From contig JAVBVW010000005.1 in the NCBI GenBank assembly GCA_036677745.1, forward strand, positions 307,268 to 371,267: a stretch of DNA of 64,000 nt, read 5' to 3'. This document shows, piece after piece, positions 12,723 to 58,409 of the stretch. Numbering within the stretch: the first letter of the stretch is position 1; each line of letters starts with the position of its first letter. Below the pieces are notes generated by a model. That model ran no database searches. It was given only the letters and a program-made list of their open reading frames with translations, and was not told the DNA's origin. Origin of the DNA: Bacteroidales bacterium (GTDB lineage Bacteria; Bacteroidota; Bacteroidia; Bacteroidales; UBA932). The position numbers were made by a program, and so were the translations under genes.

Positions 12723-13910
12723 TCAGATATAATTAATGTCAACATCTTTCAGCCATTTGCTTTCGAGCAGAGATTTAATCTTTTTAACAACGTTTCGCCG
12801 TATCTCAAGCTCTATGGGTAGTGTAGGGTCCTGATGCGCTATATTGATGCGTGTTCCAACCAGAAATGTGATTTTATCACTTTCTGCGAGTAATCTGAGC
12901 AGTTTTTCAGCAGGACCATCCTTATATTTTGATTCATACTCCTCTTCTGAGAGGACTCTTTCAACCTTACTGAGAGTCAGTATACCCTCTGTTATCAGAT
13001 CAATTCCCTCCATGTTTGACACAGGAGGAAGTTCTCTGTCAGAAGAGGATCCAACATCGGTTGTGATTGAACGGCCTGTCTCCCTTGAGATTATTTGAGC
13101 GGTTGTGCCGCCGCAAACAATTTTTTGTCCTTGAAAATTACTAATGTAATTGCTTAGGTAAACATCATTCTTTTCGTCGTAAGGAGGGCCGGTACAAACC
13201 AGAAGATTGCGTGGTTTGCGCATATAAATCACACAACAGCTGGTGTCGTCTTTAAGTACCGAACAGTCATTTTGTTCAGCTTTAATTACTATTCGTCTTG
13301 AGAGATCTTTTGCAGAAATATCGGGGTTTCTGTTTACTATCATCGAGATAAATTCCATTGCCCCATCTTCCCAGCCAAGAGGCATATTTCGGTTTCCCAT
13401 TCCCGATTGGCTTACTCCATCACTAAAGAAGATAATTCTATCCTCTTTTTGCATACGAAACTCAGAGATAAGCAGATGGGTGTTTGCAAGGTCTTCACGT
13501 TCAACGGGAATTTTCTTCTTAGGAATATTAATAAACTCTCCATTCCTGAAAAGGTAAAAAGAGGGTGTTTCGTATTCTGCTATCCGGACATTTCCAAAAC
13601 AGTCAATTTCACACAAACAAAAGGTGGAATAGCTTATTCTGCGGACAACATCCTCCGGCAATGTTTTAAGAACAGACGAAGCTGAGTCCATAATATCTTC
13701 GTTCATTATAGAGAAATTGAGCAACATAGAGGATGTTATTGTTGAGAGAACGCTAGCCTTTATACCGCTGCCAAGCCCGTCTGACAGTACACTTATAACG
13801 CGACCCTCCTCCTTGAACTTATGAGACATAAAGCTATCTCCGCAGACAATATTGCCGGCCTTGTTTTTCTGACAACAATCTACCTCTATAAAATCTCCGT
13901 TAACCCTCAT
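12723..13910 (-). CDS. PP2C/SpoIIE-family serine phosphatase with an uncharacterised C-terminal domain
   Basis: The N-terminal half has PP2C-like motifs (GDSF…, SDGLGSGIKASV, FFSDGVSQSG). About 150 C-terminal residues are not recognised. The preferred start is the ATG at 13910 (MRVNGDF…, preceded by AGGGAGG). The ORF-track start at 13955 would overlap hydS by 56 nt. Confidence 0.8.
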   Translation of the reverse strand: MRVNGDFIEVDCCQKNKAGNIVCGDSFMSHKFKEEGRVISVLSDGLGSGIKASVLSTITSSMLLNFSIMNEDIMDSASSVLKTLPEDVVRRISYSTFCLCEIDCFGNVRIAEYETPSFYLFRNGEFINIPKKKIPVEREDLANTHLLISEFRMQKEDRIIFFSDGVSQSGMGNRNMPLGWEDGAMEFISMIVNRNPDISAKDLSRRIVIKAEQNDCSVLKDDTSCCVIYMRKPRNLLVCTGPPYDEKNDVYLSNYISNFQGQKIVCGGTTAQIISRETGRSITTDVGSSSDRELPPVSNMEGIDLITEGILTLSKVERVLSEEEYESKYKDGPAEKLLRLLAESDKITFLVGTRINIAHQDPTLPIELEIRRNVVKKIKSLLESKWLKDVDINYI

Positions 13911-15633
13911 TGTGCCTCCCTCTGCTTTCGGCCTCCTTCTGATCGTAAGCATCAATAATTGAACGAAGTGTTGAGTCAGTATAGGCAGCGTTTTCTCCCA
14001 AGAGCCCGGCTACCTTTTGGACAGTGCTCATATGGTTACGGATAACTTCGCGCGTTTTCTCCAGAATCCACTCTTTCTTTACGCTTGGCTCATTCAGACT
14101 CTGCAACAATCCAAATACCTGTCTGTTTGGCTGAAGGTTATAAATTGAAAGAAGCCATGTTTTCTCATTATCTGTTATGCGTCTCTCTTTAAGCTCCTCT
14201 CCGGTAGCAAATGCTGTCCGGAAAAAAGGTTCAAACGAACAGATTTTTCCAAGTGCAGCACCACTCATACCGGGCATCAGATCGTAAACAGAAAGGATAT
14301 CTTCTCCCATATACGATGCAAAAGTTCTGTTCATATCAACAACCTTCAGGTCTGAATTAACAAGTATGACTCCTGCAGGAATCTTCTGAAGCAACACCGT
14401 GGCTTTGTCGTGAGCAATTTTACGCATATACGAAGCACACATGTTGTCTTCTGCTCTTCTGTCGAGCATTGCAACTGCAAAATCGCGGCAAGAGTCATAA
14501 CCACAACTGCTGCAGTTGAGTTCATCTTCTACTGTTGTTTTGCCAACAGTTGCCAGAGCTGCTTTTATTTCAATTTCTGTATATTTCTGTGTGCTTTTCT
14601 GACAGTTGCTGCTGAACGTTATTGCTAAATCAAGATGAGAGAACTCTTTATTAGGCTCTCCTGTTTCGCATTTGTCAATTATATCATAACGTTTTCTTGC
14701 AATAGAACCTGAATTGAGCTTAGCGGGGCCGTTAACACATCCGCCGCTACATGCAAGCAATTCCAGAAACATTGGGTCTGAACCCTCATCGGGGTTCAGT
14801 TCATTAAGCACACTCTTTACAACATCAATCCCCGAGAATGACATGTAGTGTACAGGCTTCTGCAGAGTGTTCATTCCTTTTAGCATACCTCCCTCTATGG
14901 GATAGGCGGCTCCAATTCGTGAATTGAATGGAATAAATGCCTCTCTGACATTACCCGAAATATCTCTTAGTGGCAGTTCTCCCTCAGATTCGAGCCACTC
15001 GTTAAGATCTTTGAATGTAATGGCAACATCAACAAGGTGGTTGAAGTTGTCTGATTCGATTTTTTTGCTGATACAGGGTCCAGCAAAGATTATCCTTATA
15101 TCATCGCCGTACATCTCCCGCAACATCATTGCGTGGGCAATCATCGGCGAAACAATGGGAGTAATGTTATCTACAAGAGAGGGTGCGTACTTTCGGATAT
15201 AATCCACAATTACAGGGCAGGCCGATGATATGTGAACCTTCTGAGATGACTCCCCTATATATTGTTCTGTTTTTGCAGAGACTACCTCTGCACCCAGTGC
15301 GGTCTCGGAAACTCCTGCAAAACCCAACCTTTTAATAGCCGCAATAAGTGATGAGACAGGAATATTCCCAAATTCACTAACGTATGAAGGTGCAAGCGAC
15401 AAAAATACATTTCCCGGATGCTTGCTTAGTGTGTATTTGGCTCTGGTTAGCCCGTCACGCACCTTTTTGGCACCGGTTGGACAGACCTGAGTACAGTGAC
15501 CACAGTATATGCACCGCTCCTCAATTATTGAAGCCTTATTACCTTCAACCATTATGGCTTTTACAGGACACTCTCTGATACATTTGTAACAATCCTGACA
15601 ATTCTCGGGTTCGGTGTAAATTGGTCTTAACAT
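13900..15633 (-). CDS. hydS: Putative sensory [FeFe]-hydrogenase (HydS-like, group C) with C-terminal PAS domain
   Basis: 577 aa with an N-terminal 2x[4Fe-4S] ferredoxin motif. H-domain motifs are altered relative to catalytic enzymes: L1 'SSACP' instead of TSCCP, L3 'ELLACSGGC' instead of ExMxCxxGC. An extra C-x2-C-x4-C-x16-C motif (CSSCGYDSCRDFAVAMLDRRAEDNMC) follows, then a PAS-like segment (LLQKIPAGVILVNSDLKVVDMNRTFASYMG). Confidence 0.85.
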   Translation of the reverse strand: MLRPIYTEPENCQDCYKCIRECPVKAIMVEGNKASIIEERCIYCGHCTQVCPTGAKKVRDGLTRAKYTLSKHPGNVFLSLAPSYVSEFGNIPVSSLIAAIKRLGFAGVSETALGAEVVSAKTEQYIGESSQKVHISSACPVIVDYIRKYAPSLVDNITPIVSPMIAHAMMLREMYGDDIRIIFAGPCISKKIESDNFNHLVDVAITFKDLNEWLESEGELPLRDISGNVREAFIPFNSRIGAAYPIEGGMLKGMNTLQKPVHYMSFSGIDVVKSVLNELNPDEGSDPMFLELLACSGGCVNGPAKLNSGSIARKRYDIIDKCETGEPNKEFSHLDLAITFSSNCQKSTQKYTEIEIKAALATVGKTTVEDELNCSSCGYDSCRDFAVAMLDRRAEDNMCASYMRKIAHDKATVLLQKIPAGVILVNSDLKVVDMNRTFASYMGEDILSVYDLMPGMSGAALGKICSFEPFFRTAFATGEELKERRITDNEKTWLLSIYNLQPNRQVFGLLQSLNEPSVKKEWILEKTREVIRNHMSTVQKVAGLLGENAAYTDSTLRSIIDAYDQKEAESRGRHNEG

Positions 15634-15872
15634 TAAAATTCCTCTTTTAATATTTTATAAAGCCGGGACATGTTTACATTCTCGTAAACCTTATCGTCTA
15701 TGACAATAACCGGGCCTCTGCTGCACATATTTTCGCAGAGGCGCCCGGTAAATGTAAGTTGGGCATCCAATGAGTTGTCCTGGATAAATTGCTTTATAAC
15801 CTTAACATTAGCACTATTCCCACGACTGAAACAGGAACTTCCCAAACATATTTTTATGGTGCGTTTTTGCAT
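15633..15872 (-). CDS. Small thioredoxin-like [2Fe-2S] ferredoxin (NuoE/HndA fold)
   Basis: 79 aa with Cys pattern KICLGSSC … RLCENMC. Its stop overlaps the hydS start. It is a paralog of the 84-aa protein at 12438..12692. Confidence 0.7.
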   Translation of the reverse strand: MQKRTIKICLGSSCFSRGNSANVKVIKQFIQDNSLDAQLTFTGRLCENMCSRGPVIVIDDKVYENVNMSRLYKILKEEF

Positions 15873-15898: not shown

Positions 15899-16891
15899 CT
15901 ATCTTTTTAGCCTCTCTGTGAGTAATGGGACAATTTTTTTAACATCTCCCACTATTCCCAGATCAGAAGTCTGGAATATTGGTGCGAACTTGTCTTTATT
16001 AATAGCTATTATATAGTCTGACTCCTCCATTCCAGCAAGGTGCTGAATTGCTCCTGAGATACCCAGTGCAAAATATAGGTCGGGTCTGACTGTTTTACCT
16101 GTCTGACCTACCTGACGATTGTGGGTAACAATACCGGCATCAACCAGTGCACGAGAAGATGATACCTCTGCACCAATTGTCTGTGCAAACTCACGTAACT
16201 TGCCGAAACCTTCTGCATCACCCACTCCGCGGCCTCCTGAAACTAAGATGTTGGCCTCTGTGATATCTACAAGGTTGCGCTCTTCCTTTACTGTTTCAAT
16301 CAGCTTGACTCTGAATTTAGAACTGTTAAACTTAGCATTGAAGTTTACTATTTCACCTTTACGGCTGGTGTCAGGAGTGATGGCACACATTACTCCCGGT
16401 CTTACGGTTGACATTTGAGGGCGGTGCTCTTTGCAGACAATTGTTGCCATCATATTTCCTCCGAATGCCGGACGTGTCATCATAAGATTTCCTTCGTCTG
16501 ATATCTCCAGAGCTGTACAGTCGGCTGTAAGTCCGGTTGTAAGCCTTGCCGAGAGTCTTGGGCCAAGATCGCGTCCGATTGTGGTTGCACCAATAAGGAT
16601 GATGCTTGGTTTAAACTCCTCTGCAATCTGATGTAGGGCCTGAGTATAAGGCTCTGTCATATAGTGTTTTAACTCAGGAGAGTCAACTACAATAACTTTG
16701 TCTGCTCCGTGTGAAATACAATCTGCAGCCAGACTCTGTATATTGTCACCAAGCAAAAGAGCGCATACTTTATCGCCGTGTTTGGCAGCCAGTTCTACGG
16801 CTTTGCCAAGCAACTCAAGCGATACACTTTGCAGTATGCCTTCACGCTGCTCAATAAACACATAAATATCTTTATAATTTGCTTTGTCCAT
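15899..16891 (-). CDS. etfA: Electron transfer flavoprotein alpha subunit (EtfA)
   Basis: 330 aa with typical EtfA blocks (…LVSGGRGVG…, AIGISGAIQHLAGM). It lies immediately downstream of etfB and bcd. Confidence 0.92.
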   Translation of the reverse strand: MDKANYKDIYVFIEQREGILQSVSLELLGKAVELAAKHGDKVCALLLGDNIQSLAADCISHGADKVIVVDSPELKHYMTEPYTQALHQIAEEFKPSIILIGATTIGRDLGPRLSARLTTGLTADCTALEISDEGNLMMTRPAFGGNMMATIVCKEHRPQMSTVRPGVMCAITPDTSRKGEIVNFNAKFNSSKFRVKLIETVKEERNLVDITEANILVSGGRGVGDAEGFGKLREFAQTIGAEVSSSRALVDAGIVTHNRQVGQTGKTVRPDLYFALGISGAIQHLAGMEESDYIIAINKDKFAPIFQTSDLGIVGDVKKIVPLLTERLKR

Positions 16892-16893
16892 AA

Positions 16894-17679
16894 CTATCTT
16901 ATTATGAATTTCTCTTTTAGTTTATTTAATATGATCTCAACTGCCTCCTGAGGCTCTACTTCGTGAAGTTGTCCTGCAGCTTTAGCTCCTCTTGTGAAAG
17001 ATTTGGCCACACGTGTAGGGGAGCCACCCAGGCCGAGCTTCTTTTCGTCGATATTGATGTGCTCATATCCACGTATGCTTACCTCTTTGCCAAAGGACTC
17101 TACAATTCCGCGAACCGACATATAACGAGCTTTATTGGCGCTTGAGAGTACTGTAAGAACACATGGTGTCTCTACCTCAAGAATCTGATATCCCTCCTCG
17201 GTTGATTTCTTGACGGTCAGTTTTTTATTGCCGTCAAATTTTACATCCTCTACATAGGTGATCTGTGGTAAATCGAGGTGCTCTGCTATCTGTGGTCCTA
17301 CCTGTGCTGTATCGCCGTCAATTGCCTGACGTCCTGTAATTATAACATCAAAATCGAGCGTTTTAAGTGCGCCTGCAAGAGTGTTAGATGTAGCAAGTGT
17401 ATCTGCTCCGGCAAATTTACGGTCGGTAAGCAGGATTCCTTTATCAGCACCCATTGCATAGGCTTCGCGAATTATCGCCTCTGCCTTTAACGGACCCATA
17501 GTGATTACTGTAACTTCGGCACCAAATTCATCTTTCAGTCGGAGAGCCAGTTCAAGACCTCCTTTATCATCTGGGTTCATGATGCTGGGAACACCCTCCC
17601 GTATCATTGTCCCGGTAACAGGATCCAGTTTTATCTCAGTTGTATCAGGTACCTGCTTTATGCAAACTATTATCTTCAT
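16894..17679 (-). CDS. etfB: Electron transfer flavoprotein beta subunit (EtfB)
   Basis: 261 aa. The start MKIIVCIKQVPD and the segment …DLIITGRQAIDGDTAQVGP are characteristic of EtfB. Confidence 0.92.
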   Translation of the reverse strand: MKIIVCIKQVPDTTEIKLDPVTGTMIREGVPSIMNPDDKGGLELALRLKDEFGAEVTVITMGPLKAEAIIREAYAMGADKGILLTDRKFAGADTLATSNTLAGALKTLDFDVIITGRQAIDGDTAQVGPQIAEHLDLPQITYVEDVKFDGNKKLTVKKSTEEGYQILEVETPCVLTVLSSANKARYMSVRGIVESFGKEVSIRGYEHINIDEKKLGLGGSPTRVAKSFTRGAKAAGQLHEVEPQEAVEIILNKLKEKFIIR

Positions 17680-17691
17680 AATTTCTCTTTG

Positions 17692-18831
17692 TTATTTAAG
17701 TATGTTTGCAGCGATTACCATTCTCTGGACTTCGCTGGTGCCTTCGTATATTTCTGTGATCTTTGCATCACGCATCATCCGCTCTACAGGATACTCTCTT
17801 GTATAGCCATATCCTCCGTGGAACTGAACAGCCTTTGTTGTCATCTCCATTGCGGTTTCTGCCGCAAAGAGCTTACACATTGCAGCATCGGCAGAGTAGG
17901 GAAGCTTCATATCTTTTTTCCAGGCTGCAGAGCGTACCAGAAGGCGTGCTGCCTGAATTTTAGTTTCAAGATCGGCCAGTTGGAACTGTGTGTTCTGGAA
18001 TGCAGAGATTGGCTTGCCAAACTGCTTGCGCTCTTTTGTGTATTTAATGGTTTCGTCCATAGCTCCCTGAGCAATACCAAGAGCCTGAGATGCAATTCCT
18101 ATACGACCTCCGTCAAGTGTTTTCATTGCAATTCCAAAACCTTTTCCAATCTGTCCCAGCAGGTTTTCCTTAGGTACGATACAGTTTTCCATTATCAGTT
18201 CACATGTGGCAGAGCCGCGGATTCCCAGCTTCTTCTCTTTTTTACCCACTGAGAAGCCCGGAAACTTAGTCTCTACAATAAAGGCAGAGATTCCGCGTGT
18301 ACCCTGGGATTTGTCAGTCATTGCAATAATGATATTAACATCGGCATATGCAGCATTGGTGATAAAGATCTTTGATCCGTTAAGCACCCAGTGATCTCCC
18401 ATATCCGTTGCAATTGTCTGCTGACCTCCAGCGTCTGTACCTGCATTTGGTTCGGTTAGTCCAAATGTGCCAATCCACTCGCCGCTTGCAAGTTTAGGCA
18501 GGTATTTGCGCTTTTGCTCCTCTGTTCCGAATTCCCAGATTGGAGCACAGCATAAAGAGGTGTGTGCAGAGACGATAACTCCTGTTGTTGCGCAGGCTCT
18601 GGAAAGCTCCTCGACGCACATAGAGTATAGCTGGTTATCACCACCGGCACCACCATACTCAGCCGGAAACGGAATACCCATGATTCCCAGTTTTGCCATT
18701 TTTTTTACGGTCTCCACCGGGAAGCGCTCCTGCTCGTCGATTTCGGCAGCCAAAGGCTTAACCTCCTTCTCGGTGAACTCCCTGATCATCTGCAGGAAAA
18801 GCTCCTGCTCTTTACTTAGAGAAAAATCCAT
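17692..18831 (-). CDS. bcd: Butyryl-CoA dehydrogenase (short-chain acyl-CoA dehydrogenase, Bcd)
   Basis: 379 aa with the acyl-CoA dehydrogenase signature (…GLTEPNAGTDA…, QFHGGYGYTREYPVERMMRDAKITEIYEGTSEVQ). It is adjacent to etfBA. Confidence 0.9.
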   Translation of the reverse strand: MDFSLSKEQELFLQMIREFTEKEVKPLAAEIDEQERFPVETVKKMAKLGIMGIPFPAEYGGAGGDNQLYSMCVEELSRACATTGVIVSAHTSLCCAPIWEFGTEEQKRKYLPKLASGEWIGTFGLTEPNAGTDAGGQQTIATDMGDHWVLNGSKIFITNAAYADVNIIIAMTDKSQGTRGISAFIVETKFPGFSVGKKEKKLGIRGSATCELIMENCIVPKENLLGQIGKGFGIAMKTLDGGRIGIASQALGIAQGAMDETIKYTKERKQFGKPISAFQNTQFQLADLETKIQAARLLVRSAAWKKDMKLPYSADAAMCKLFAAETAMEMTTKAVQFHGGYGYTREYPVERMMRDAKITEIYEGTSEVQRMVIAANILK

Positions 18832-18845
18832 AATATAGTTGTGTT

Positions 18846-20201
18846 TTAATTTTTCCAGATTTCTGAATCACTTGGTACTTGAATACGTGCTGAAAGCGGG
18901 GCTACACGTGTAATATTTAACAGATGCTTGTATGTGAAATTCTCTGATATTGAGTTGTTTCCCCAAGTTCCGCAACCAAGAGTATTGGTAACGGCAAGTC
19001 CGTTTTGAATAGATCCGCCGGCGGTAGTGGCGCAGATTGCATTTACAATTACGCGTGAAACAGAGAGCTCGGTCCCGGCTTTAATAATGTTTGCCTGGTT
19101 GTTTGAGTGTATGCCGGCCGTGTGACCACTCCCCTCAAATGTGAGATTTTTCTCAGCTATTTCTATAGCTTCGTCAAAATAACCGTAAGGAATGACCGTT
19201 AATACAGGGAACATCTTTTCTTTGCAGATAATATCAGCCTTGCCTGCACATTTTGCCTCAATAACAAGAATTTTGGTATCTTCCGGAACTGTTATCCCTG
19301 CTGCCTTTGCGATTGTGATTGCAGATTTGCCTATCAACTCTCTAGTCATTGTTCCATCCTGAAATATTGTATCAACAACCCTCTGGCGCTCCTCCTCAGG
19401 AACAACGTAACCTTTGTTTTTTCTGAATGCATCAAGTACCTCTTCGCGGCACTCCTTCGGATAAATTGCACTTTGCTCTCCCGAGCATATAATTCCGTTA
19501 TCAAACGAACGTCCGGTAACAATTTTCCCCACTGCAAGATCATAATCAATATTTCGGTCAAGAATCACCTGGACATTTCCGGCACCCACTCCGAACGAAG
19601 GTTTGCCTGATGAGTACGCAGATTTTACCATTGGCATACCTCCTGTGGCAACAACAGTATCGCACCTCCTCATAAGCTCCTGAGTCTTCTCAAGTGTAGG
19701 CTCCTCAATCACCTGTACCATGCCCTCTGGTACATTCATAGGGGCAATTGCTTCAATTATTGCCTTAACCGCAGCTACAGAGCACCTCTTAGCTCTGGGG
19801 TGAGGGGATATTATTATGGCATTCTTGGTTTTAAGAGCAAAAATTATCTTTGACATAGGGGTTACAATAGGGTTTGTCATTGGAGTAATTCCGGCAACAA
19901 CGCCTATTGGTTTTGCAATCTCGATAAGTCCTGTCATTTCGTCTATGCTCAGAATACCCATCGATTTTTTCCCTTTAAGGTTATTCCAAACACCTTTTGA
20001 TTTGTTTCGGTTTTTGGCGACCTTATCTTCATAAACGCCCATCTCTGTCTCCTCAACAGCCATACGTGCAAGCTCTTCGGCATTATCGAAGATGGCGCGT
20101 GCGGCCAGTTTAATGGTCTGATCTACATCGTCCTGGTCAAATTGTACCTGGTAAGCGGCCTGCGCTTTGCGCGCCAGTGCAATCATCTCTTTTATCTCCA
20201 T
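18846..20201 (-). CDS. sucD: CoA-acylating succinate-semialdehyde dehydrogenase (SucD-type aldehyde dehydrogenase)
   Basis: 451 aa. It resembles the recalled Clostridium kluyveri/Porphyromonas gingivalis SucD along its length (EETEMGVYEDKVAKN…, NGIICSGEQS, GHTAGIHS, TLGCGTWGNNSISEN). Confidence 0.82.
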   Translation of the reverse strand: MEIKEMIALARKAQAAYQVQFDQDDVDQTIKLAARAIFDNAEELARMAVEETEMGVYEDKVAKNRNKSKGVWNNLKGKKSMGILSIDEMTGLIEIAKPIGVVAGITPMTNPIVTPMSKIIFALKTKNAIIISPHPRAKRCSVAAVKAIIEAIAPMNVPEGMVQVIEEPTLEKTQELMRRCDTVVATGGMPMVKSAYSSGKPSFGVGAGNVQVILDRNIDYDLAVGKIVTGRSFDNGIICSGEQSAIYPKECREEVLDAFRKNKGYVVPEEERQRVVDTIFQDGTMTRELIGKSAITIAKAAGITVPEDTKILVIEAKCAGKADIICKEKMFPVLTVIPYGYFDEAIEIAEKNLTFEGSGHTAGIHSNNQANIIKAGTELSVSRVIVNAICATTAGGSIQNGLAVTNTLGCGTWGNNSISENFTYKHLLNITRVAPLSARIQVPSDSEIWKN

Positions 20202-20218
20202 TGCGTTATGATATTAAA

Positions 20219-21334
20219 TTAAAACAATTCTTTATAGATACCCCTTATGTCATCCTCCGTGAAGGGAACATAATTATTGTTGAGCAGACGTTGCTGACCA
20301 ACGAGTACACTTTGTGTAAAACTTTCGATCTCTCTCTCCTGCATTCCGTAGAAACTTAGCCGGTTTTTTGAAGTCAGATGTCCCAGCAGCTCATCAAGCT
20401 TCGTGTAAACCATCTCCTCTGATGTGTTGAGCAACTTTGCATACAGTTCATTAACCTCTTTTATAGCCCCCTGTGGTCTCTTCTTGTTGTAGAGTTTGAA
20501 TACAGCGGTAAAAAACTGGTAGTTGGCTTCTCCGTGCGGTACATGGTAAACTCCTCCCAGCGGATATGAGAGTGCATGAACAGCCCCTACACCTGTGTTT
20601 CCGAATGCTACTCCGGCATAGTTGCTAGCAATCAGCATATCTTCAAGTCGTTCAAGACTATGTTCCTGCCCCTTAAGAGCAATTTCAGAAAACACATCAA
20701 CAATTAAGCTGATAGCTTCGCGGCAGTACATCTTGGTATATGGATTCGATTTTGGCGAAACGTAGGACTCTGTGGCGTGTATAAGTGCATCTATGGCGCT
20801 GAATGCAAAGAATTTAAATGGCAACCCCTTTAGAAGTTCAGGAATCAGTACGGCATCATCGGGTAATAGAGTGTCGTCTGCTATTCCCATTTTGGTATTT
20901 TTTGCCTTGAGTTCTGCGATTGAGATATTGGTCACCTCGCTGCCGGTTCCGCATGTGGTTGGAATGGTGACAAGCTTTTTCTGCTTAACAATTGGAACTT
21001 TTCTTTCAAACACTTCAGATATATCATTAACTTTGTTGATTACTAGGAGTTTGGATACATCAATTACAGTACCTCCTCCAATAGCCACAACTCTGTCATA
21101 CTTTAAATCTGAAATATCGGCGAGTATTCTGTTTATCATTTGGTCAGAGGGCTCGCCGGAGCCGTACTTCTCAATCATTACGAACAGACACTTGAGGTCT
21201 GCCTTCTCTATGTACGACTTGTAAAGGAAGTCGTGTGTAAGAACCAGATCATTTGGGCCAAGTTCGAAGTTGCAGGCAAACTCTGCAAAAGTGTCGAAAC
21301 GGCTGACAGTTGTTTTTAATTTGAATAACTGCAT
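20219..21334 (-). CDS. 4hbD: NAD-dependent 4-hydroxybutyrate dehydrogenase (iron-containing alcohol dehydrogenase family)
   Basis: 371 aa with a Fe-ADH fold (GGGTVIDVSK, GVGAVHALSYPLGG). The size and position between sucD and the CoA-transferase match the known succinate-to-butyrate clusters. Confidence 0.8.
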   Translation of the reverse strand: MQLFKLKTTVSRFDTFAEFACNFELGPNDLVLTHDFLYKSYIEKADLKCLFVMIEKYGSGEPSDQMINRILADISDLKYDRVVAIGGGTVIDVSKLLVINKVNDISEVFERKVPIVKQKKLVTIPTTCGTGSEVTNISIAELKAKNTKMGIADDTLLPDDAVLIPELLKGLPFKFFAFSAIDALIHATESYVSPKSNPYTKMYCREAISLIVDVFSEIALKGQEHSLERLEDMLIASNYAGVAFGNTGVGAVHALSYPLGGVYHVPHGEANYQFFTAVFKLYNKKRPQGAIKEVNELYAKLLNTSEEMVYTKLDELLGHLTSKNRLSFYGMQEREIESFTQSVLVGQQRLLNNNYVPFTEDDIRGIYKELF

Positions 21335-21342: not shown

Positions 21343-22638
21343 CTATTTGTTAAACCTTTTTTTGTACTCTTCTTTCAAATCATCACGGAAATCCGGATGT
21401 GCAATCGCTATCAAAGCCTCTGCCCTCTGAACAAGGGTACGCCCTTTGAGTTTGGCCACTCCGTACTCGGTCACCACATAATCAACATCGTTTCTGGAAG
21501 TTGTTACCGCTGCACCCGGGCTCAGGAACGGAACTATTCTCGACACCTTTCCTTTAGAGGCGGTAGCCGGAACGGCAATTATCGACCTGCCCCCTTTTGA
21601 AACTGATGCTCCGCGCACATAGTCAACCTGACCTCCTGTGCCGCTGAATTGCTTTGTTCCTATACTCTCTGCATTCACCTGACCCATAAGATCGACCTCT
21701 ATACACGAGTTGATTGAAACCATATTGTTGTTCTGTCCTATTACCGCTGGGTTGTTTACATAATCGACAGGCATCAACTCAACCAATGGGTTATTGTCCA
21801 CAAAATCATATAAGGCGCGTGTACCCATAAGGAAAGTGGCTACCAGTTTACCGGGGTGGAGAGTTTTAAGTCTTCCGTTAATAACTCCTGATTTAACCAG
21901 CTCCATTGCTCCGTCTGAGAACATCTCGGTATGAACTCCAAGATCTTTTTTCTCTTTCAGAAATAGCAGCACCGCATCAGGAATTGCTCCAATCCCCAGC
22001 TGAAGAGTATCTCCGTCATTAATAAGTGATGCACAGTTTTTCCCGATTTCCCTCTCAACCTCAGTCACCGATGGGAGCGGAATTTCAGGAATCGGATCTG
22101 CACAGGGAACTATACAATCGAACCTGGATAAATGGACCCTGTTAGTTGATCCGACATAGGGCATGCACTCATTAACCTGTGCAATCACCCTTCCTGCCTT
22201 TTCAACGGCAGCTTTGGTGTAGTCACATGATAAACCCAGACTGCAATAGCCTTCACTATCAGGAGGTGATACATTGATAATTGCAATATCTACAGGAAAG
22301 ATATTGCCTATCAGCTGAGGGGTGTCCTTGAAAAAACATGGTATGAAGTCGGCCCTTCCCTGTGAAACGGACTCTCTTGAAGATCCTCCCACAAAATTTG
22401 TGATGTGGTGGAAATGCTTTGAATTTTCCGGCAAAAGGTACTCTCCGTAGCCGAGAGGCAGCATATGGTATATGTGAAGATTGCTGAACCTCTCTTTTTG
22501 CGCAACCAATTCACGCATGATAACCTGTGGATTGGCCGCTGCATGTGAACATACTATATAATCGGAATCGTTTATCGTGCCAACTGCCCGGGTGGCAGAA
22601 ACGATCTTATCTTTGTATTGTTCTTTCCAGTTCATCAT
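21343..22638 (-). CDS. cat2: 4-hydroxybutyrate CoA-transferase (Cat2/AbfT)
   Basis: 431 aa of the acetyl-CoA hydrolase/transferase family (…GIGAIPDAV…, SGTGGQVDYVRGA…). Its start overlaps the abfD stop (ATGA). Confidence 0.85.
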   Translation of the reverse strand: MMNWKEQYKDKIVSATRAVGTINDSDYIVCSHAAANPQVIMRELVAQKERFSNLHIYHMLPLGYGEYLLPENSKHFHHITNFVGGSSRESVSQGRADFIPCFFKDTPQLIGNIFPVDIAIINVSPPDSEGYCSLGLSCDYTKAAVEKAGRVIAQVNECMPYVGSTNRVHLSRFDCIVPCADPIPEIPLPSVTEVEREIGKNCASLINDGDTLQLGIGAIPDAVLLFLKEKKDLGVHTEMFSDGAMELVKSGVINGRLKTLHPGKLVATFLMGTRALYDFVDNNPLVELMPVDYVNNPAVIGQNNNMVSINSCIEVDLMGQVNAESIGTKQFSGTGGQVDYVRGASVSKGGRSIIAVPATASKGKVSRIVPFLSPGAAVTTSRNDVDYVVTEYGVAKLKGRTLVQRAEALIAIAHPDFRDDLKEEYKKRFNK

Positions 22639-24119
22639 TTTTCTGTATTGCTATTCGGGCATTTGGTCAGCTCCTCTTTTATCAAGGCAATCTCTTTGGC
22701 AAGCAGTTTCTTACCTTCGATATTCCCCTGTCTGGCAATCATTACTCTCTGTGCCTGCGGAGAGCCGGCTCCGTGCATCGATTCGGTACGGTAACCAACG
22801 GCAGCTGTACCCAGAGTTATATTTTCTATCAGTCTGAGGATTCGCATACGGTTTTCAGTTGAAACACCCTCTACCCCTTTCAGATACTTCTCTACGTAAG
22901 CTCCAACTTCGGGGCTGCGGAAATCCTGCTCCGATGGCATTGTCACCATAAGACCTCCCGCGATATCTTCTGCGAGTCGGGCTATCTCGTATGGCATACG
23001 GGTGATATTCTGCTTGCAGACATTGGCAAGCAAAAGGTTAACAATATAGTTACCTGCAGGCATCGACTCTCCCTCTGCCGAGCATGCTATACCGCAGGCA
23101 TACAGGGTTTCATTCAGGTGAGTCATCTCTATGAGTTTGTCTTTGATGTGGCTTGCCTTGGCAGCTCCATTGTAATCGGCAGCTACTGCCGAAGCACCAA
23201 TCAGTACATCACCAACGCCAACCTTACACCCACCGTATGACTGGCGGTGGTATCCTGCGAATCTTTCAACCATCATGCCTGCAAAATCATACTCACGACA
23301 CATAAAGATGCGCTCATTAGGAACAAAAACGTCGTTGAAAATTACAAGAGCCTCGTGACCACCAAAGCGGGGATTTCCCAGGTCGATGTCAGCACCCGGC
23401 TCCATCTTGCGGGTATCACACGATTGTCTTCCGTATATCATAACAACCCCTTCTGCATCAGATGGAACGGCAAAAGAGACCGCATAGTCTGCATCCTCCT
23501 CCTTCATTGCAACAGTAGGCATAATAAGGTGTTCATGCGAGTTTACGGCACCTGTCTGGTGCGCTTTTGCGCCTCTCACCACAATTCCTTCCGGCAAAAC
23601 CTTAACAATCCGAAGATATTGGTCGGGATCTGCCTGCTTTGACGGAGATAGCCCACGATCTCCTTTAGGATCGGTCATTGCGCCGTCAACCGTAAGATCG
23701 TTCTCCTGTACAAACTTCAGATAGTCTGTAAAACGTCTGTGATACTCTGTCCCGTATTTTTTGTCGATTTCGTATGTAGTTGAGTATATCGCGTTAAATG
23801 CGTCCATTCCCACACAACGCTGAAAACATGATGCTGTCTTTTGTCCGAGAAGGCGTTGCATCTTAACCTTTTTCACAAGGTCGTCGGTATTCTGATGAAG
23901 GTGGCAGAAACGATTTATGGTTTTTCCGGTGAGGTTAGATGTTGCGGTCATAAGCTCACGGTATTCCGGCATTTCGGCAAGCTCGTAGGTCATTGCAACA
24001 GAATTCATAGACGGTTTGATCATTGGATGGTCAACGGGGTTGTCTATAAGTTCGCCCATAAGGTAAACCTTAAGATTCATCTTCCTGAGGCTTTCGATAT
24101 ACTGCTCTTTTGTCATCAT
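22635..24119 (-). CDS. abfD: 4-hydroxybutyryl-CoA dehydratase / vinylacetyl-CoA delta-isomerase (AbfD)
   Basis: 494 aa of the HpaB/AbfD-like family. The N-terminus MMTKEQYIESLRKMNLKVYLMGE and length are typical of AbfD. It is the first CDS after the riboswitch. Confidence 0.88.
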   Translation of the reverse strand: MMTKEQYIESLRKMNLKVYLMGELIDNPVDHPMIKPSMNSVAMTYELAEMPEYRELMTATSNLTGKTINRFCHLHQNTDDLVKKVKMQRLLGQKTASCFQRCVGMDAFNAIYSTTYEIDKKYGTEYHRRFTDYLKFVQENDLTVDGAMTDPKGDRGLSPSKQADPDQYLRIVKVLPEGIVVRGAKAHQTGAVNSHEHLIMPTVAMKEEDADYAVSFAVPSDAEGVVMIYGRQSCDTRKMEPGADIDLGNPRFGGHEALVIFNDVFVPNERIFMCREYDFAGMMVERFAGYHRQSYGGCKVGVGDVLIGASAVAADYNGAAKASHIKDKLIEMTHLNETLYACGIACSAEGESMPAGNYIVNLLLANVCKQNITRMPYEIARLAEDIAGGLMVTMPSEQDFRSPEVGAYVEKYLKGVEGVSTENRMRILRLIENITLGTAAVGYRTESMHGAGSPQAQRVMIARQGNIEGKKLLAKEIALIKEELTKCPNSNTEK

Positions 24120-24299
24120 AATGGTATGTGTTTAATATTCAGTTTCGTGTTTCGGTTCAGGCAAAGCAATCACACTCCGGCAAAAATGCCGGCTTCTCAT
24201 GTTTTTTCAACTTCGCCCCGCTAAAGGCGACTATTTTCCGAAGTTTAACTTTTAGGTTGTCATTTAACCCGGTCCACGGGGTTTTGTGACATTAACATG

Positions 24300-24455
24300 A
24301 ATTGGCAGGTCTTCTGACTAACACACTCATTCCTAAACCTTCCCGGCCGTTATGACCAGTGGTCGCAGATTTTTTCGGAACGTTCACGTGCTTCACAGCA
24401 GCGGGCCTGTCCGGGATTCACACCCGGTTCCCTTTTAATCAACACACCTGTTGGT
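24300..24455 (-). promoter_or_regulatory. Cobalamin (B12) riboswitch in the 5' leader of the abfD operon
   Basis: The minus strand reads CAGGTGTGTTGATTAAAAGGGAACCGGGTGTGAATCCCGGACAGGCCCGCTGCTGTGAAGC…GACCACTGGTCATAACGGCCGGGAAGGTTT…GTTAGTCAGAAGACCTGCC. All conserved blocks are present: GGGAA/GGTG-GAATCC, AC-GG-CCCGC-CTGT, CCACTG, GGGAAGG, and the B12 box AGTCAGAAGACCTGCC. P1 closes as CAGGT/ACCTG. Confidence 0.85.
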
Positions 24456-24476
24456 GTATCGATACCAATTCGGGTG

Positions 24477-24484
24477 CAAATGTA
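24477..24484 (-). promoter_or_regulatory. Candidate -7 promoter box (TACATTTG) driving the riboswitch/abfD operon
   Basis: TAnnTTTG match on the minus strand, about 25 nt upstream of the riboswitch P1 stem. Confidence 0.5.
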
Positions 24485-24733: not shown

Positions 24734-25882
24734 TCAAATATTACCAAATTTCATTTTTATAATAAAAACATCATTGTCTGAGTCTGGAAGCTGACTCATT
24801 TTGTGTAAAATATAGTCTTTGAGATTTGTTGTTTTTGATAATACCTCTTTTACAGCGTCTTTGTCGCGGTAAACTACCGAGTAAAAATAGTTTGAGTCTG
24901 ATGCCAGAATAAAAAAAGGGTCGTTGTTGTTACTTTCGTATGCCCATCGGAACCCTTTGCAGTTATTCTTTGATAGAACAAAATCGTTCTGCAAAGCAGC
25001 CGGGCCAATCGACGAAAAATAGAGATGTTCCTTTGTATCATGTATATGTATCGGGAGCTTATAGTAATCCGAAAATAGATAGTTTTTCATCCCCTCAAAC
25101 AAATCGCCACCATTATTGAAAATATACTTAGGCGAAATTGCTTGTTGTTGAAAATCAATTTTTAAAAAAGGAGTGAGATCTTTTCCGATTTTATAAGCAA
25201 TATTGTCACCCTCCTGAGGTCTCATAATCGTTGACTTGTCATATGACTGAGTAAATATCCCCTGAGTAAATACAAAGTCTTTCCTGGGCAAAAACTCTTT
25301 AATCTTCACTCCATTGTTGTCAAATTGGGTAAGAGCATAAAAATGCTCTTCAAAATTAGATTCGTCAGGAGGATTTGAAGAGAACAGGTAAAAACCTCCA
25401 TTAACGGACGCACAAATTGCGTCGTAATTAACCTGTTCAAAATTTAACTTTAAAACAAACTTGCCGTCACTTATTTTATATTTTGATACACCGCTTGAAT
25501 GGAGGAGCCAGATGTACTCACCATCAGGGGTTATGCACATATCAGTAATATCGGTATATTCGCCTGGTCCGCGCCCTTTATTGCCGATACTTCCGATATA
25601 TTTTCCGGTTTCATCAATAACTTGAATGCCTAGGATTTCGTCTTTTAAAATAAAGTTATCATTATTATCAATTAAGATCTTAGATACCACAGATATAATA
25701 TCTCCAGAGCTACTTTGTACCGGGATAAAGATTAATGTGTCCACAAATAATGAAAAATCATCGGTAAAAGTTGTGGTTTTCAAAGGTGCAATTGTTTGGA
25801 TTGTTTCATTTTCAAGCCTATTGCAGCTAATTAAGGCAAAGATTACCCACAAAAAATAGAAAGGTAAATGAGGCTTTTTCAT
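24734..25882 (-). CDS. BF3164-type 6-bladed beta-propeller lipoprotein (propeller A)
   Basis: 382 aa. It has a lipoprotein signal (…FALISCN) and the hallmark KGRGPGEYTDITD motif of the Bacteroidales 6-bladed beta-propeller (DUF5128/BF3164) family. It is a paralog of 26741..27892. Confidence 0.78.
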   Translation of the reverse strand: MKKPHLPFYFLWVIFALISCNRLENETIQTIAPLKTTTFTDDFSLFVDTLIFIPVQSSSGDIISVVSKILIDNNDNFILKDEILGIQVIDETGKYIGSIGNKGRGPGEYTDITDMCITPDGEYIWLLHSSGVSKYKISDGKFVLKLNFEQVNYDAICASVNGGFYLFSSNPPDESNFEEHFYALTQFDNNGVKIKEFLPRKDFVFTQGIFTQSYDKSTIMRPQEGDNIAYKIGKDLTPFLKIDFQQQAISPKYIFNNGGDLFEGMKNYLFSDYYKLPIHIHDTKEHLYFSSIGPAALQNDFVLSKNNCKGFRWAYESNNNDPFFILASDSNYFYSVVYRDKDAVKEVLSKTTNLKDYILHKMSQLPDSDNDVFIIKMKFGNI

Positions 25883-26740: not shown

Positions 26741-27892
26741 TTATTTATATGTGTATTTTAAAATAACATAGTTATCATCTATGTTGATGTTTGATAATGC
26801 AATTTGTTGACTACTACTTAGGATAGATTTATTTACAAATTGACTTAAATATTTTGGGGGAATGCAGATATAATGATATTCTTTATGAGAATATCCTGGA
26901 AATATTTGAACTCCTTCTTTTGTTTTATGAAATACATGTGATTTGTTTAAACTTTTATTGTAAGCTAATGTCATCATTCTTCCCCTAAAATTAAAATTAG
27001 AGATTACAAAACCATCTGATTCAGTGCACAATAGAAAACTTGATGCGTATTTAAAAGAAATTGTGTTCCCCAATTGATAATAGTAAGCATCATTCTCGTT
27101 TTCTGGCACTTCAGACAAATTAAAATTATACTTGCCAAAATCCCACTTGTACTTTGCAAAAATTGAGAGAGATGTAGTATCAATTGAATAAATATTTCCA
27201 TTATGTCCCTCGTAAAAACGAACTGTATCGTTGAACCTAATAAATGGAGACATAGCGAATTTCAAGGTGCTTTTTTTAAGAATATAATCAGGCAGGGTAT
27301 AGTCTGTTTTTACCACCTCATTTTCTTTTGTAGAATAATATATAAGCTTTTTATCGTTAAATATTGAGAAAAAAACATAGTAATCATCAGAAAGAATCTC
27401 AAACAAATGAGTGGACTTCGTACTATCTTTAAGACTAAATGAATCAACAAAATAATTACTGTCTATGGTATAGCGATATAGTGTGCCGGTAGGACAGAGC
27501 AGCTCAATGGTTCTGTTTTGTCGATTAATTCCAAAATCACTAAGAAGCGAATACTCTCCCGGCCCGCGCCCTCTCTTATTAATTGTTGTGATATATTTCC
27601 CACAAGAGTCAAATTTTTGTATCAAATGCTGTTTACTATCAAGAATATAAATAAAATCCTCGAATGGAATAACTTTAACGAAATTCATTTGACTTAGTAA
27701 AGAGAGGTTAGTTGTTTCTAATGGGATAATCTCAACCTTAGAAAAGATATCAAAAAAAGATAAAGAATCTTTTATATTATCCAATTCAACAGGGATAAGA
27801 TCATTATCTAAAAGATTATTTGTACGACTATTGCATCCGTATGTAAAAAGTATGATAAAAGTCAAAAATGATGCAATTACAATTTGTTTCAT
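26741..27892 (-). CDS. BF3164-type 6-bladed beta-propeller lipoprotein (propeller B)
   Basis: 383 aa with a lipoprotein signal (…LFTYGCN) and the KRGRGPGEYSLLSDF motif. Overall length and pattern match propeller A. Confidence 0.78.
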   Translation of the reverse strand: MKQIVIASFLTFIILFTYGCNSRTNNLLDNDLIPVELDNIKDSLSFFDIFSKVEIIPLETTNLSLLSQMNFVKVIPFEDFIYILDSKQHLIQKFDSCGKYITTINKRGRGPGEYSLLSDFGINRQNRTIELLCPTGTLYRYTIDSNYFVDSFSLKDSTKSTHLFEILSDDYYVFFSIFNDKKLIYYSTKENEVVKTDYTLPDYILKKSTLKFAMSPFIRFNDTVRFYEGHNGNIYSIDTTSLSIFAKYKWDFGKYNFNLSEVPENENDAYYYQLGNTISFKYASSFLLCTESDGFVISNFNFRGRMMTLAYNKSLNKSHVFHKTKEGVQIFPGYSHKEYHYICIPPKYLSQFVNKSILSSSQQIALSNINIDDNYVILKYTYK

Positions 27893-27978: not shown

Positions 27979-28476
27979 TTACATAAAATCACTATAGGAT
28001 TCAATGCCTATCGCAATAATAATTTGGTTAGCAGGATTAAAATGAATTATAGCGTGACCTATGCTTTTATATTCCTCACTTGGAGCCCAATAAAAGAGAT
28101 TTGGTTTTACATTGAATATAATACCCCCCATTTGATTAACCGCAGAAGTACTCATTCCTACTCCAAGAAAATTATTCAATTTAATGTTGTTTCCTCTAAT
28201 AACGATTTGTTGCAATGAATTATTAATGAGTGTAAATTCATTTTCTTTTCCAGCTAAACTATCGTAATACCAATATGTGATCCAATCCGGGAAATCTTCG
28301 TTAGGAGGCGTTATTCTGCTTGGAGCACCTAGACTGTCAGTTAGTTGTGATTCTGTGTAAGTAGCTCCCAAAATGAGTCCGTTTACTTTGATTTCACTAT
28401 ATTGTGAAAATACAGGTATTGAAAGGGTTAATGAAACAATAATTATTATAAACTTTTTCATAAGCAACGAATTCAT
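27979..28476 (-). CDS. Small secreted protein, paralog A of a four-gene tandem family (function unknown)
   Basis: 165 aa. The signal peptide ends …PVFSQ (Gln at +1), and the real start is probably the internal MKKF. It is very similar to paralog D (…EIKVNGLILGATYTESQ.TDSLGAPS…, …KLNN.L.VGM..S.VNQMGG…, FYWAPSEEYKSIG.AIIHFNP). Confidence 0.75.
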   Translation of the reverse strand: MNSLLMKKFIIIIVSLTLSIPVFSQYSEIKVNGLILGATYTESQLTDSLGAPSRITPPNEDFPDWITYWYYDSLAGKENEFTLINNSLQQIVIRGNNIKLNNFLGVGMSTSAVNQMGGIIFNVKPNLFYWAPSEEYKSIGHAIIHFNPANQIIIAIGIESYSDFM

Positions 28477-28546
28477 TAGAGAATGTTATATACAAAAAAT
28501 CTTGCCGGAGATTCTTTAATTAAATGTCCGGCAAGAAAATTTAATC

Positions 28547-29035
28547 TTAAGAAGGGAAACGACACACCATTCGTGTAATAATTCCATTGTTGTGGAATAT
28601 CTCGAAGACTGTGTCACCAATTCCCCTGAAATAATAAGAACCACCCGGTTTTACTTCCAATTGACCAAAGCCAAGCTGATTGAATTTGGCAATAGGCTCT
28701 CCTACTTTAATGCCTCCCTGCAGGTCTAAAGTAAAAACTGCAAACCTGTTGTCAATCAATGTAAAAGTAGAGAAAAATCCATTATTGCTAAATCTGAAAA
28801 AATTTTGCCCGTAGTAATATTTTTCGTCTAGTCCGAATTCGCTTTCTCTGCTCCAGTATCTGTCCGGGGCTCCGAACTTGTTCGTGACGTAACTATAATT
28901 ATAAATCTCGGCCAGTTTCATCCCATTTACATCCTGGGCAAATGATGCAAGTGGAGTTGCTACGAGAATTAAAAGAGTGACTGATAATGTTATTGCAGGT
29001 TTATTGAGTGTTATCATATCAAGAGACTTATGCAT
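28547..29035 (-). CDS. Small secreted protein, paralog B (most divergent member)
   Basis: 162 aa with a signal peptide …LASFAQ. It shares the VNGMKL……FGAP and …GIKVG…..F.QLG pattern with the other three members. Confidence 0.65.
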   Translation of the reverse strand: MHKSLDMITLNKPAITLSVTLLILVATPLASFAQDVNGMKLAEIYNYSYVTNKFGAPDRYWSRESEFGLDEKYYYGQNFFRFSNNGFFSTFTLIDNRFAVFTLDLQGGIKVGEPIAKFNQLGFGQLEVKPGGSYYFRGIGDTVFEIFHNNGIITRMVCRFPS

Positions 29036-29036
29036 T

Positions 29037-29513
29037 TTATATGAGCGGAATTGCTACTTCTCCACTTATCAATGTGATCTTATTAGTAGAAACATCTGTA
29101 TGTATTATCAAGTATCCGGTTTCATTATAGTAATTTTCGCTAGGCGCCCAATAATAAACACCCGGAGACTTTCCCGGAATAAGCAAGCCACCCATCAGAT
29201 TTAATGCAGATGAATCCATACCCACACCAAGATAATTATTTACTTTAAACAAAGTATCTCGGATAGTAAAATAAATAAAATCACCAGCTTGAAACACAAA
29301 TTCTGAACTTCCATAGTGATACTCTGTCATTTCAGGAATATCATCATCAGGAGATGGATATCTGATGTTGGTAGGAATCCCAAGTGCTGCAGTTATTTGT
29401 GCACCAGAATATGAAGCCGACAGGCTAAGGCCATTTATCGTTATTGTGCAGTTTTGTGAATAAATAGATATTGAACAAAGAACAAAAATCAAGAATAGTA
29501 TAAACTTTTTCAT
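29037..29513 (-). CDS. Small secreted protein, paralog C
   Basis: 158 aa with a signal peptide …SIYSQ. It shares INGLSL…ALGIP, KVNNYLGVGMDSSALNLMGG and YYWAPSENY with paralogs A and D. It lies 1 nt from the paralog B start. Confidence 0.72.
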   Translation of the reverse strand: MKKFILFLIFVLCSISIYSQNCTITINGLSLSASYSGAQITAALGIPTNIRYPSPDDDIPEMTEYHYGSSEFVFQAGDFIYFTIRDTLFKVNNYLGVGMDSSALNLMGGLLIPGKSPGVYYWAPSENYYNETGYLIIHTDVSTNKITLISGEVAIPLI

Positions 29514-29522
29514 ATGATTTAA

Positions 29523-30005
29523 TTACATAAAATCACTTGTTGTGCTAACGTCAATCAATGTTATTTTCTGATTTGAAGGGTTAAAGTGGATAATTGCATA
29601 TCCGATGCTCTTGTATTCCTCACTTGGTGCCCAATAAAAGAGATCTGACGTTGAATTATAGATTACGCCTCCCATTTGATTTACCATTGATATATCCATT
29701 CCAACTTCGAGATAATTATTTAATTTGAAATTATTATTTCTAATGCAGAATTGTTGAAGTGATCCATCAATAAATAAAAAGGCACTTTCATTTCCTATAA
29801 CGCTGTTTAAATAGCAGTATTCAACCCAATCAGGAAAATCCTGATTTGGAGGAATTATTTTGCTTGGAGCACCGAGACTGTCTGTTATTTGAGACTCTGT
29901 GTATGTAGCTCCCAAAATGAGTCCGTTTACTTTAATTTCACTAAATTGTGAAAACAAAGGCATAGAAACGATTAATGAAACAATAGATATTATTAACTTT
30001 TTCAT
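29523..30005 (-). CDS. Small secreted protein, paralog D
   Basis: 160 aa with a signal peptide …PLFSQ. It is the closest relative of paralog A and the first gene of the array. Confidence 0.75.
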   Translation of the reverse strand: MKKLIISIVSLIVSMPLFSQFSEIKVNGLILGATYTESQITDSLGAPSKIIPPNQDFPDWVEYCYLNSVIGNESAFLFIDGSLQQFCIRNNNFKLNNYLEVGMDISMVNQMGGVIYNSTSDLFYWAPSEEYKSIGYAIIHFNPSNQKITLIDVSTTSDFM

Positions 30006-52682: not shown

Positions 52683-52695
52683 TTAGGGATAATTA

Positions 52696-53577: not shown

Positions 53578-53581
53578 TAAT

Positions 53582-54613: not shown

Positions 54614-54623
54614 TCTTACAGCT

Positions 54624-55628: not shown

Positions 55629-55659
55629 TAAAAAATTAAACGAAAACCGGAATCCAGTT

Positions 55660-57303: not shown

Positions 57304-57309
57304 TAAGAG

Positions 57310-58383: not shown

Positions 58384-58409
58384 CCTGTTTTTAAGCAGAT
58401 CGGATCATT

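Follow-up and report, generated by a model that had tools for sequence, protein, structure and literature searches.

Why does a sensor of vitamin B12 stand in front of a fermentation operon whose enzymes do not use the vitamin? The question is raised by a stretch of 64,000 nucleotides (nt) from a Bacteroidales bacterium (assembly GCA_036677745.1, contig JAVBVW010000005.1, positions 307,268 to 371,267 of the forward strand), here called the window and numbered from its first letter. On its minus strand, a cobalamin riboswitch precedes abfD and the other genes of a pathway from succinyl-coenzyme A (succinyl-CoA) to butyryl-CoA. This arrangement recurs in divergent Bacteroidales and in none of the other phyla sampled. 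In the interpretation we favour, and consider rather more probable than its negation, the element is an OFF switch, through which cobalamin would repress a sink for succinyl-CoA that needs no B12 and competes with the B12-dependent methylmalonyl-CoA mutase.

Identification of the riboswitch

When the whole 64-kb window was scanned with cmscan against Rfam 15, the only match above gathering score was to RF00174 (Cobalamin), at 24287..24484 on the minus strand. Its score is 115.1 bits, the gathering score being 31.5, with an E-value of 3.9e-28; the alignment runs untruncated over model positions 1-189 of 189, and RF00174 is the top-scoring family of its clan for this sequence. The aptamer is of the long form and has the complete architecture of the family, that is, the closing helix P1, the GCCACUG/GGGAAG core junction, the B12 box and the peripheral extension. 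Both the sequence and the RF00174 match place the B12 box, AGTCAGAAGACCTGCC, at 24304..24319 (minus strand), and the CCACTG...GGGAAGG core lies at about 24362..24337 on the same strand. An earlier reading made from the letters of the window, here called the first-pass annotation, had quoted these same blocks as marks of a canonical cobalamin riboswitch on the minus strand; all were found in the sequence, and the full-length covariance-model match bears the call out.

The core of the B12 box (...CAG.AGACCTGCC) is unchanged in all nine aligned riboswitches from abfD loci, and the window aptamer is 90-98% identical to those of its close relatives L081 and L096 (loci used for comparison are given by L numbers). 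The presence of the riboswitch, far beyond chance, is confirmed. The sequence and predicted structure of the RNA are ordinary for RF00174. Long-form cobalamin aptamers of this family bind adenosylcobalamin (AdoCbl), and corrinoid binding is predicted for the window element. The start codon of abfD, at 24119 on the same strand, is 167 nt away from the Rfam 3' end of the aptamer; the first-pass distance of about 180 nt agrees with this when counted from its own 3' boundary.

The butyrate operon

The four signature enzymes of the pathway are encoded side by side on the minus strand. The gene nearest to the riboswitch, abfD (22635..24119), encodes 4-hydroxybutyryl-CoA dehydratase/vinylacetyl-CoA isomerase; the protein matches PDB 1U8V with 841 bits, carries HpaB_N and HpaB domains, and has named homologues annotated as the same enzyme. 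It is followed by abfT (21343..22638), for a 4-hydroxybutyrate CoA-transferase (586 bits to 3EH7, an enzyme of the same name), by 4hbD (20219..21334), for an iron-type alcohol dehydrogenase assigned as 4-hydroxybutyrate dehydrogenase (382 bits to PDB 30sm, 'Cvir-Hbd2', with Fe-ADH domains), and by sucD (18846..20201), for a CoA-acylating succinate-semialdehyde dehydrogenase (479 bits to 8CEI, likewise an acylating succinate-semialdehyde dehydrogenase). With sucD, 4hbD, abfT and abfD all together, the window contains the pathway as one operon. Next on the same strand come bcd (17692..18831), for an acyl-CoA dehydrogenase with 521 bits to an AcrC-type model, etfB (16894..17679; EtfB, 339 bits) and etfA (15899..16891; EtfA, 371 bits). 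Because SucD is the entry enzyme, the entry substrate would be succinyl-CoA.

The gene calls of the first-pass annotation are correct: the four pathway enzymes match solved structures, and Bcd, EtfB, EtfA and the [FeFe] hydrogenases described below are backed by domain or model matches. Its statement that none of these enzymes depends on B12 stands as well. They are homologues of AbfD, which contains flavin adenine dinucleotide and a [4Fe-4S] cluster, of AbfT, of iron-type alcohol dehydrogenases, of acylating succinate-semialdehyde dehydrogenases, of Bcd/Etf and of [FeFe] hydrogenases, and enzymes of these families are known not to use a corrinoid as cofactor.

The gene order abfD-abfT-4hbD-sucD is the same in every Bacteroidales-type locus of sufficient length (five short contigs stop before 4hbD/sucD), and this core is unchanged whether or not a riboswitch is present. 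A gene for a NifU-domain protein of ~103 amino acids (aa) is inserted between abfD and abfT in L081, L084, L092 and L098 and is absent from the window and from L099; its product may be an iron-sulphur scaffold for the [4Fe-4S] dehydratase.

Distribution of the riboswitch upstream of abfD

Eighty abfD loci were fetched by AbfD alignment from one-genome-per-species collections, and all were scanned with Rfam at gathering thresholds. RF00174 matches of 71-115 bits were obtained for 9 of the 15 Bacteroidales-type AbfD loci, on the abfD strand and upstream either of abfD itself or of a MarC gene followed by abfD; L002, L006, L008, L012 and L017 are among those without it. None of the 65 loci from other phyla (Clostridia, Negativicutes, Deltaproteobacteria, Acidobacteria, Spirochaetes and others) has an RF00174 match upstream of abfD. 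Look-ups of exact proteins contributed two further carrier lineages (L081/82 and L096/97) and four lineages in which there is no riboswitch within 1.5 kb (L084, L090, Odoribacter L092 and Tenuifilaceae L094). In all, a riboswitch precedes abfD in 11 of 21 Bacteroidales-type lineages as against 0 of 65 others; Fisher's exact test gives a p of about 6e-7 for lineages that are not independent samples and may include wrongly labelled metagenome-assembled genomes (MAGs), computed with 42 other-phylum loci, the 23 scanned afterwards being without the riboswitch too. The comparative scan thus finds RF00174 in front of abfD orthologues of other Bacteroidia, where the first-pass annotation had proposed to look for it.

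The carrier L009 bears the label Acutalibacteraceae; it was counted as Bacteroidales-type on two grounds, namely an AbfD with 82% identity to that of the window and the presence of the TACCTTTG box. If the label is right, the link occurs once outside the Bacteroidales, and p is still about 1e-5 (again for the table with 42 other-phylum loci). For L007, the upstream sequence amounts to 371 nt only. Recurrence in many Bacteroidales and in no other sampled phylum argues for a selected regulatory link and not for chance juxtaposition.

Five groups can be distinguished among the 11 aptamers: the window clade; L009; L003, L004 and L005; L013, L015 and L018; and L020, from a Porphyromonas sp. Aptamer identity between groups is 42-61%, the value of 61% being that of L005 with L013 and L018 of another group. 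The AbfD proteins are 78-86% identical to the window protein in the divergent loci and at least 95% identical in the window's own clade. Riboswitch groups as divergent as these suggest that the link is either old or has been recruited repeatedly; whichever of the two applies, the sequence comparison indicates that the association is under selection. The window itself is near-identical to the L001 contig (MAG 'Bacteroidales bacterium UBA5548'), and the named relatives nearest to it are Bacteroidetes bacterium HGW-Bacteroidetes-7 and GWE2_39_28. By their record titles the carriers come from varied habitats, with groundwater- or sediment-type MAGs, rumen and gut among them, and relatives of Porphyromonas, Prevotellaceae and Muribaculaceae have the arrangement. 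The carrier assemblies include DINE01 (UBA5548), GCA_001769145.1, HGW-Bacteroidetes-7 and the MAGs RUG390, RUG429, UBA4347 and Porphyromonas sp. SUG530.

Several loci have riboswitches or genes in other positions. A gene for a MarC-family integral membrane protein sits between riboswitch and abfD in a Muribaculaceae locus (L003:5340-5966) and a Prevotellaceae locus (L004:5319-5963), so that riboswitch control would reach this gene first in the two loci. A second RF00174 riboswitch of the Prevotellaceae locus (L004:12000-12199, minus strand, 92 bits) is aimed at the 3' end of sucD. The longest open reading frame (ORF) in the 400 nt that it would control is at most 41 aa, and outside the window clade no aptamer is closer to that of the window than this one (61%); the element may control an antisense RNA, or be an orphan. 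In L048 (Sporomusaceae), a cobalamin riboswitch at 11772-11969 lies 4.3 kb downstream of abfD and would serve other genes. Thiamine pyrophosphate riboswitches occur a few kb from abfD in four Firmicutes loci (L029:4044-4145, L038:1261-1372, L052:244-366 and L062:3158-3257), three of them on the opposite strand.

Promoter and leader

The Bacteroidetes -7 promoter consensus is TAnnTTTG, and a candidate box, TACATTTG, lies at the 5' edge of the riboswitch (24477..24484, minus strand). It is identical in L001, L081 and L096. Taken by itself, the box was rejected as promoter evidence, the motif (TANNTTTG or TAnnTTTG) not being enriched across the window, with 61 matches against 64 expected. It was accepted as a candidate because of its recurrence: TAnnTTTG is found 0-67 nt upstream of all ten abfD-linked riboswitches for which upstream sequence is available. 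The -7 box reported in the first-pass annotation is thus present and recurrent, while the motif on its own carries no weight. Transcription probably starts at the riboswitch, as the sequence and the recurrence of the box suggest.

The abfD-linked leaders range in length from about 120 to about 750 nt. At the upper end, the riboswitch-abfD leader of the Porphyromonas sp. (L020:5255-6001) measures ~745 nt, has no convincing ORF, and exceeds the btuB leader of P. gingivalis, which is reported to have 430 nt. Over its full 370 nt, the leader of the window clade is 96% conserved across three species-level lineages. Minimum free energy (MFE) folding of the window leader predicts three hairpins on the minus strand. 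Hairpin 1 (24258..24291; TGTCA..AACCC-loop-GGGTT..TGACA) follows the aptamer and is P13-like; its pairing is kept in L081 and L096 through wobble-compatible changes, and its loop is invariant. The stem of hairpin 2 (24213..24230; TCGCC..GGCGA) is kept in L096, with a different loop. Hairpin 3 (24177..24192; CCGGCA-TTTT-TGCCGG, followed by a broken U-run) is a weak terminator candidate with a single stem mismatch in L096.

Unconstrained MFE folding also proposed two long-range pairings. That of 24380-24374 with 24242-24236 was rejected, as uncompensated changes in L081 and L096 break it; that of 24409-24405 with 24162-24158 is invariant in the relatives and hence uninformative. For the 3' strand of P1, the most favourable pairing in the window is with 24203-24188, beside hairpin 3 (-11.5 kcal/mol, z about -2.6); it was not adopted, being unconserved in L081 and L096. 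The last 55 nt of the window leader are C-rich and G-poor, a composition compatible with Rho-dependent attenuation, which we mention as speculation.

A more explicit expression platform is seen in two of the orthologous leaders. Those of L013 and L018 contain a GC-rich terminator hairpin of 15-17 bp with a U-run, about 50-60 nt before the abfD start. When each 16-nt window of the leader was scored against the 5' arm of this terminator, the single best complement in both loci was the 3' strand of P1, directly after the B12 box; the pairings have energies of -19.7 and -19.3 kcal/mol, against means near -6 and standard deviations of 3-4. As the 3' strand of P1 serves as the antiterminator of a strong terminator, L013 and L018 have the classical OFF geometry: binding of the ligand would lock P1, thereby block the antiterminator and let the terminator act. 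A CGCG/CGCG match between L5 and L13 is evident in the leaders of L003, L004, L005, L013, L015 and L018. Judged by these orthologues, by the behaviour of the RF00174 family and by two Bacteroidales precedents discussed below, regulation in the window is most likely of the OFF type.

Hydrogenase genes downstream of the butyrate operon

The minus-strand genes continue beyond etfA with a hydrogenase module. Domain or model matches identify a Trx-like [2Fe-2S] ferredoxin of 79 aa (15633..15872), a HydS-like, sensory-type [FeFe] hydrogenase homologue of 577 aa (13900..15633), a PP2C/SpoIIE phosphatase (12723..13955) and a second small ferredoxin (12438..12692); the last gene, hydB (11036..12448), encodes a group-B [FeFe] hydrogenase that matches TIGR04105 with 508 bits, above cut-off. 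An apparent gap of 266 nt after etfA is occupied by the gene for the 79-aa ferredoxin, and the real gap is 26 nt. From 24119 to 11036, every gene is on one strand, with gaps of at most 30 nt. The same order is found from abfD to the PP2C gene in L098 and from abfD to the start of the second ferredoxin gene in L099, both loci ending before hydB. On spacing alone, it is plausible that the hydrogenases are co-transcribed with abfD in the window clade. L018 has its module upstream of the riboswitch, and the hydrogenase genes are therefore not a conserved part of the regulon. The riboswitch-headed operon that the first-pass annotation had drawn through to the hydrogenases is thus supported by contiguity within the clade and does not carry over to L018.

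Relation to known systems

The succinate/4-hydroxybutyrate route (sucD-4hbD-cat2/abfT-abfD) is known from Clostridium kluyveri, C. aminobutyricum and Porphyromonas gingivalis. Like these organisms, the window has all four signature enzymes, closely related to solved examples; unlike the known route, its operon also includes bcd-etfBA and sensory as well as catalytic [FeFe] hydrogenases, and has a riboswitch at its head.

Repression of B12-independent enzymes by B12 riboswitches has familiar instances. The class I/III nrd genes, as opposed to class II, are repressed in this way. The case of the B12-independent metE, as opposed to metH, is discussed in PMC9600662. With these the window shares the proposed logic, namely that a B12-independent option is shut when B12 is available. 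The metE and nrd cases are isofunctional pairs, whereas the routes considered here share only their substrate, succinyl-CoA, and a whole pathway of 7-13 genes is involved. The window element would therefore work like the metE/nrd family without being a strict member of it. Of the analogy as first drawn, the logic and the B12 independence of the enzymes can be retained, and equivalence of function cannot.

Two Bacteroidales systems are closest. In P. gingivalis, where btuB has the cbl-1 leader, coenzyme B12 lowers the btuB transcript and leaves the leader unaffected (PMC3422912). This riboswitch, like that of the window, belongs to RF00174 and stands at the 5' end of an mRNA with a long leader; its target is a B12 transporter, whereas that of the window is a fermentation pathway without any B12-related enzyme. 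Xylanibacter (Prevotella) ruminicola makes propionate only when cobalamin is supplied, and its riboswitch-adjacent genes are those most strongly repressed by B12 (PMC11575231). The strain makes no butyrate. None of its four riboswitches is near propionate-pathway genes, for which reason the authors consider the control of propionate formation probably post-translational (PMC11575231). A succinate-to-propionate conversion gated by B12 in a member of the Bacteroidales is the common point with our proposal; the location of the X. ruminicola riboswitches, away from the branch-point genes, is the difference from the window.

The only mention of the linkage that we found in the literature searched is a single sentence on Tannerella, in which a riboswitch beside a butyrate gene was noted in periodontitis metatranscriptomes, with the gene mislabelled 'adenosylcobalamin biosynthesis'; an earlier note, for example in Rodionov et al. 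2003, is possible. The juxtaposition is the same, and was reported without comparative analysis or metabolic interpretation. Neither abfD nor butyrate nor succinate is mentioned in the large RegPrecise survey of riboswitches (PMC3766115). The link between the riboswitch and abfD is essentially undescribed. While the riboswitch itself is known biology, its target, the conservation of the link and the B12-gated choice that it implies make the operon a new regulon member.

Regulatory model and alternatives

The other fate of succinyl-CoA in Bacteroidales is conversion by the AdoCbl-dependent methylmalonyl-CoA mutase, leading to propionate. In the model that we favour, the riboswitch would form the 5' leader of an mRNA that encodes a self-contained module for the conversion of succinyl-CoA via succinate semialdehyde, 4-hydroxybutyrate, 4-hydroxybutyryl-CoA and crotonyl-CoA to butyryl-CoA. 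With corrinoid bound, the closed aptamer would allow a structure further downstream to cause termination or occlusion, which would silence the operon; with corrinoid scarce, the leader would be read through and the operon would be on. A mutase, presumably encoded elsewhere in the genome, would be inactive without B12, and the 4-hydroxybutyrate route would then offer an alternative sink for carbon and electrons. In the window clade, the adjacent hydrogenases could oxidise the ferredoxin that Bcd-Etf had reduced, giving H2. The model explains why the link is restricted to the Bacteroidales, since it is there that succinate is converted to propionate by way of a B12 enzyme.

Several observations weigh against this model. 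The window and the fetched loci yielded neither a mutase nor a B12 transporter: Pfam scans covered almost all window genes, and a six-frame search for the mutase and B12-binding motifs RIARNT, DGHDxG and SLHTN in the window and in L001-L097 gave no match. The two routes have different products, propionate and butyrate, which is not an exchange of isozymes of the metE/nrd type. Ten of the 21 Bacteroidales lineages have the same abfD-abfT-4hbD-sucD operon without the riboswitch; with about half of these operons doing without it, riboswitch control is optional and dispensable. The window leader contains no canonical terminator, 24192-24177 having been left uncalled by the terminator scan, and the alternative pairings found in it are either unconserved in L081 and L096 or uninformative. 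A partner in the leader for a kissing interaction with the L5 loop of the window (GGCCCG) was sought, and none was convincing. Lastly, the sole expression record for an abfD-linked riboswitch is the uninterpreted Tannerella metatranscriptome match.

If B12 does not signal competition for succinyl-CoA, it could serve as an environmental or community cue, distinguishing host-associated from free-living conditions or reporting corrinoid producers, and so time the expression of a costly, oxygen-sensitive pathway. The patchy distribution within the Bacteroidales and the varied habitats of the carriers would fit such a role; we nevertheless regard it as unlikely, because it leaves unexplained why the link is confined to a phylum in which a B12 enzyme leads from succinate to propionate and is absent from all 65 loci elsewhere. 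An OFF switch could also have a different B12-dependent counterpart, the 4-hydroxybutyrate route substituting for lysine 5,6-aminomutase in lysine fermentation or for glutamate mutase. Some Bacteroidales do ferment lysine and glutamate to butyrate, by way of AdoCbl enzymes, and the operon carries its own bcd-etf. These routes begin from other substrates, however, and the presence of sucD in every long-enough locus fixes succinyl-CoA as the point of entry. Moreover, repression of the operon's bcd-etf under B12 would hinder the lysine route unless there were a second copy. No kam or glm genes turned up in the window or the loci, though no search was aimed at them. We judge a counterpart of this kind to be distinctly unlikely.

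The direction of regulation could also be the reverse, with an ON switch or an indirect activation: given B12, the mutase would supply succinyl-CoA from propionyl-CoA or methylmalonyl-CoA released in amino-acid breakdown, and butyrate would be formed from it. The missing canonical terminator and the want of a conserved alternative pairing in the window leader leave room for this, but L013 and L018 show the classical OFF geometry and nearly all characterised cobalamin riboswitches repress. Non-classical mechanisms do exist, such as control of an antisense RNA in Listeria (introduction of PMC11575231); in both Bacteroidales tested, B12 represses the riboswitch-proximal genes (PMC3422912, PMC11575231), and activation seems to us very unlikely. 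The same missing terminator, together with the half of related operons that manage without a riboswitch, might even suggest an aptamer that is a non-functional relic or that controls a short leader transcript of no consequence to the operon. Such an aptamer would hardly be expected to give a very high, full-length RF00174 score, to be followed by a leader so well conserved over its whole length among three lineages, or to recur next to abfD in five divergent riboswitch groups, and we consider this highly improbable.

Other features of the window

Upstream of the riboswitch, four tandem paralogous genes on the minus strand (27979..30005) encode ~160-aa proteins with N-terminal signal-like sequences; these four have no Pfam match and are 26-69% identical to one another. 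They adjoin two paralogous genes for DUF5128 six-bladed beta-propellers (24734..25882 and 26741..27892). On the plus strand, five Mfa-like fimbrillin genes occur at 51825..60941 together with DUF5119 and DUF4906 genes, and two of the five fimbrillins bear Fib_succ_major/Lcl_C C-terminal domains. This cluster looks like a type V pilus locus.

Biological implications

The model can be extended from the window to butyrogenic Bacteroidales of gut, rumen, mouth and sediment, for which corrinoid would be the switch at succinyl-CoA: with B12 they would form propionate, and without it butyrate, accompanied by H2 in the window clade. This wider proposal is more tentative, and we would put its chances slightly below even. 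If it is true, the output of short-chain fatty acids and H2 by these bacteria would be set by cross-feeding of B12, and no fewer than five divergent riboswitch lineages would have recruited the link or kept it. Propionate and butyrate differ in their effects on the host, H2 feeds methanogens and acetogens, and the communities of gut, rumen and mouth share B12, which is often in limiting supply. The finding would then provide a simple, testable mechanism for the effects of B12 on short-chain fatty acid profiles, and the rule by which B12 riboswitches repress B12-independent alternatives would be extended from pairs of isozymes to whole competing pathways.

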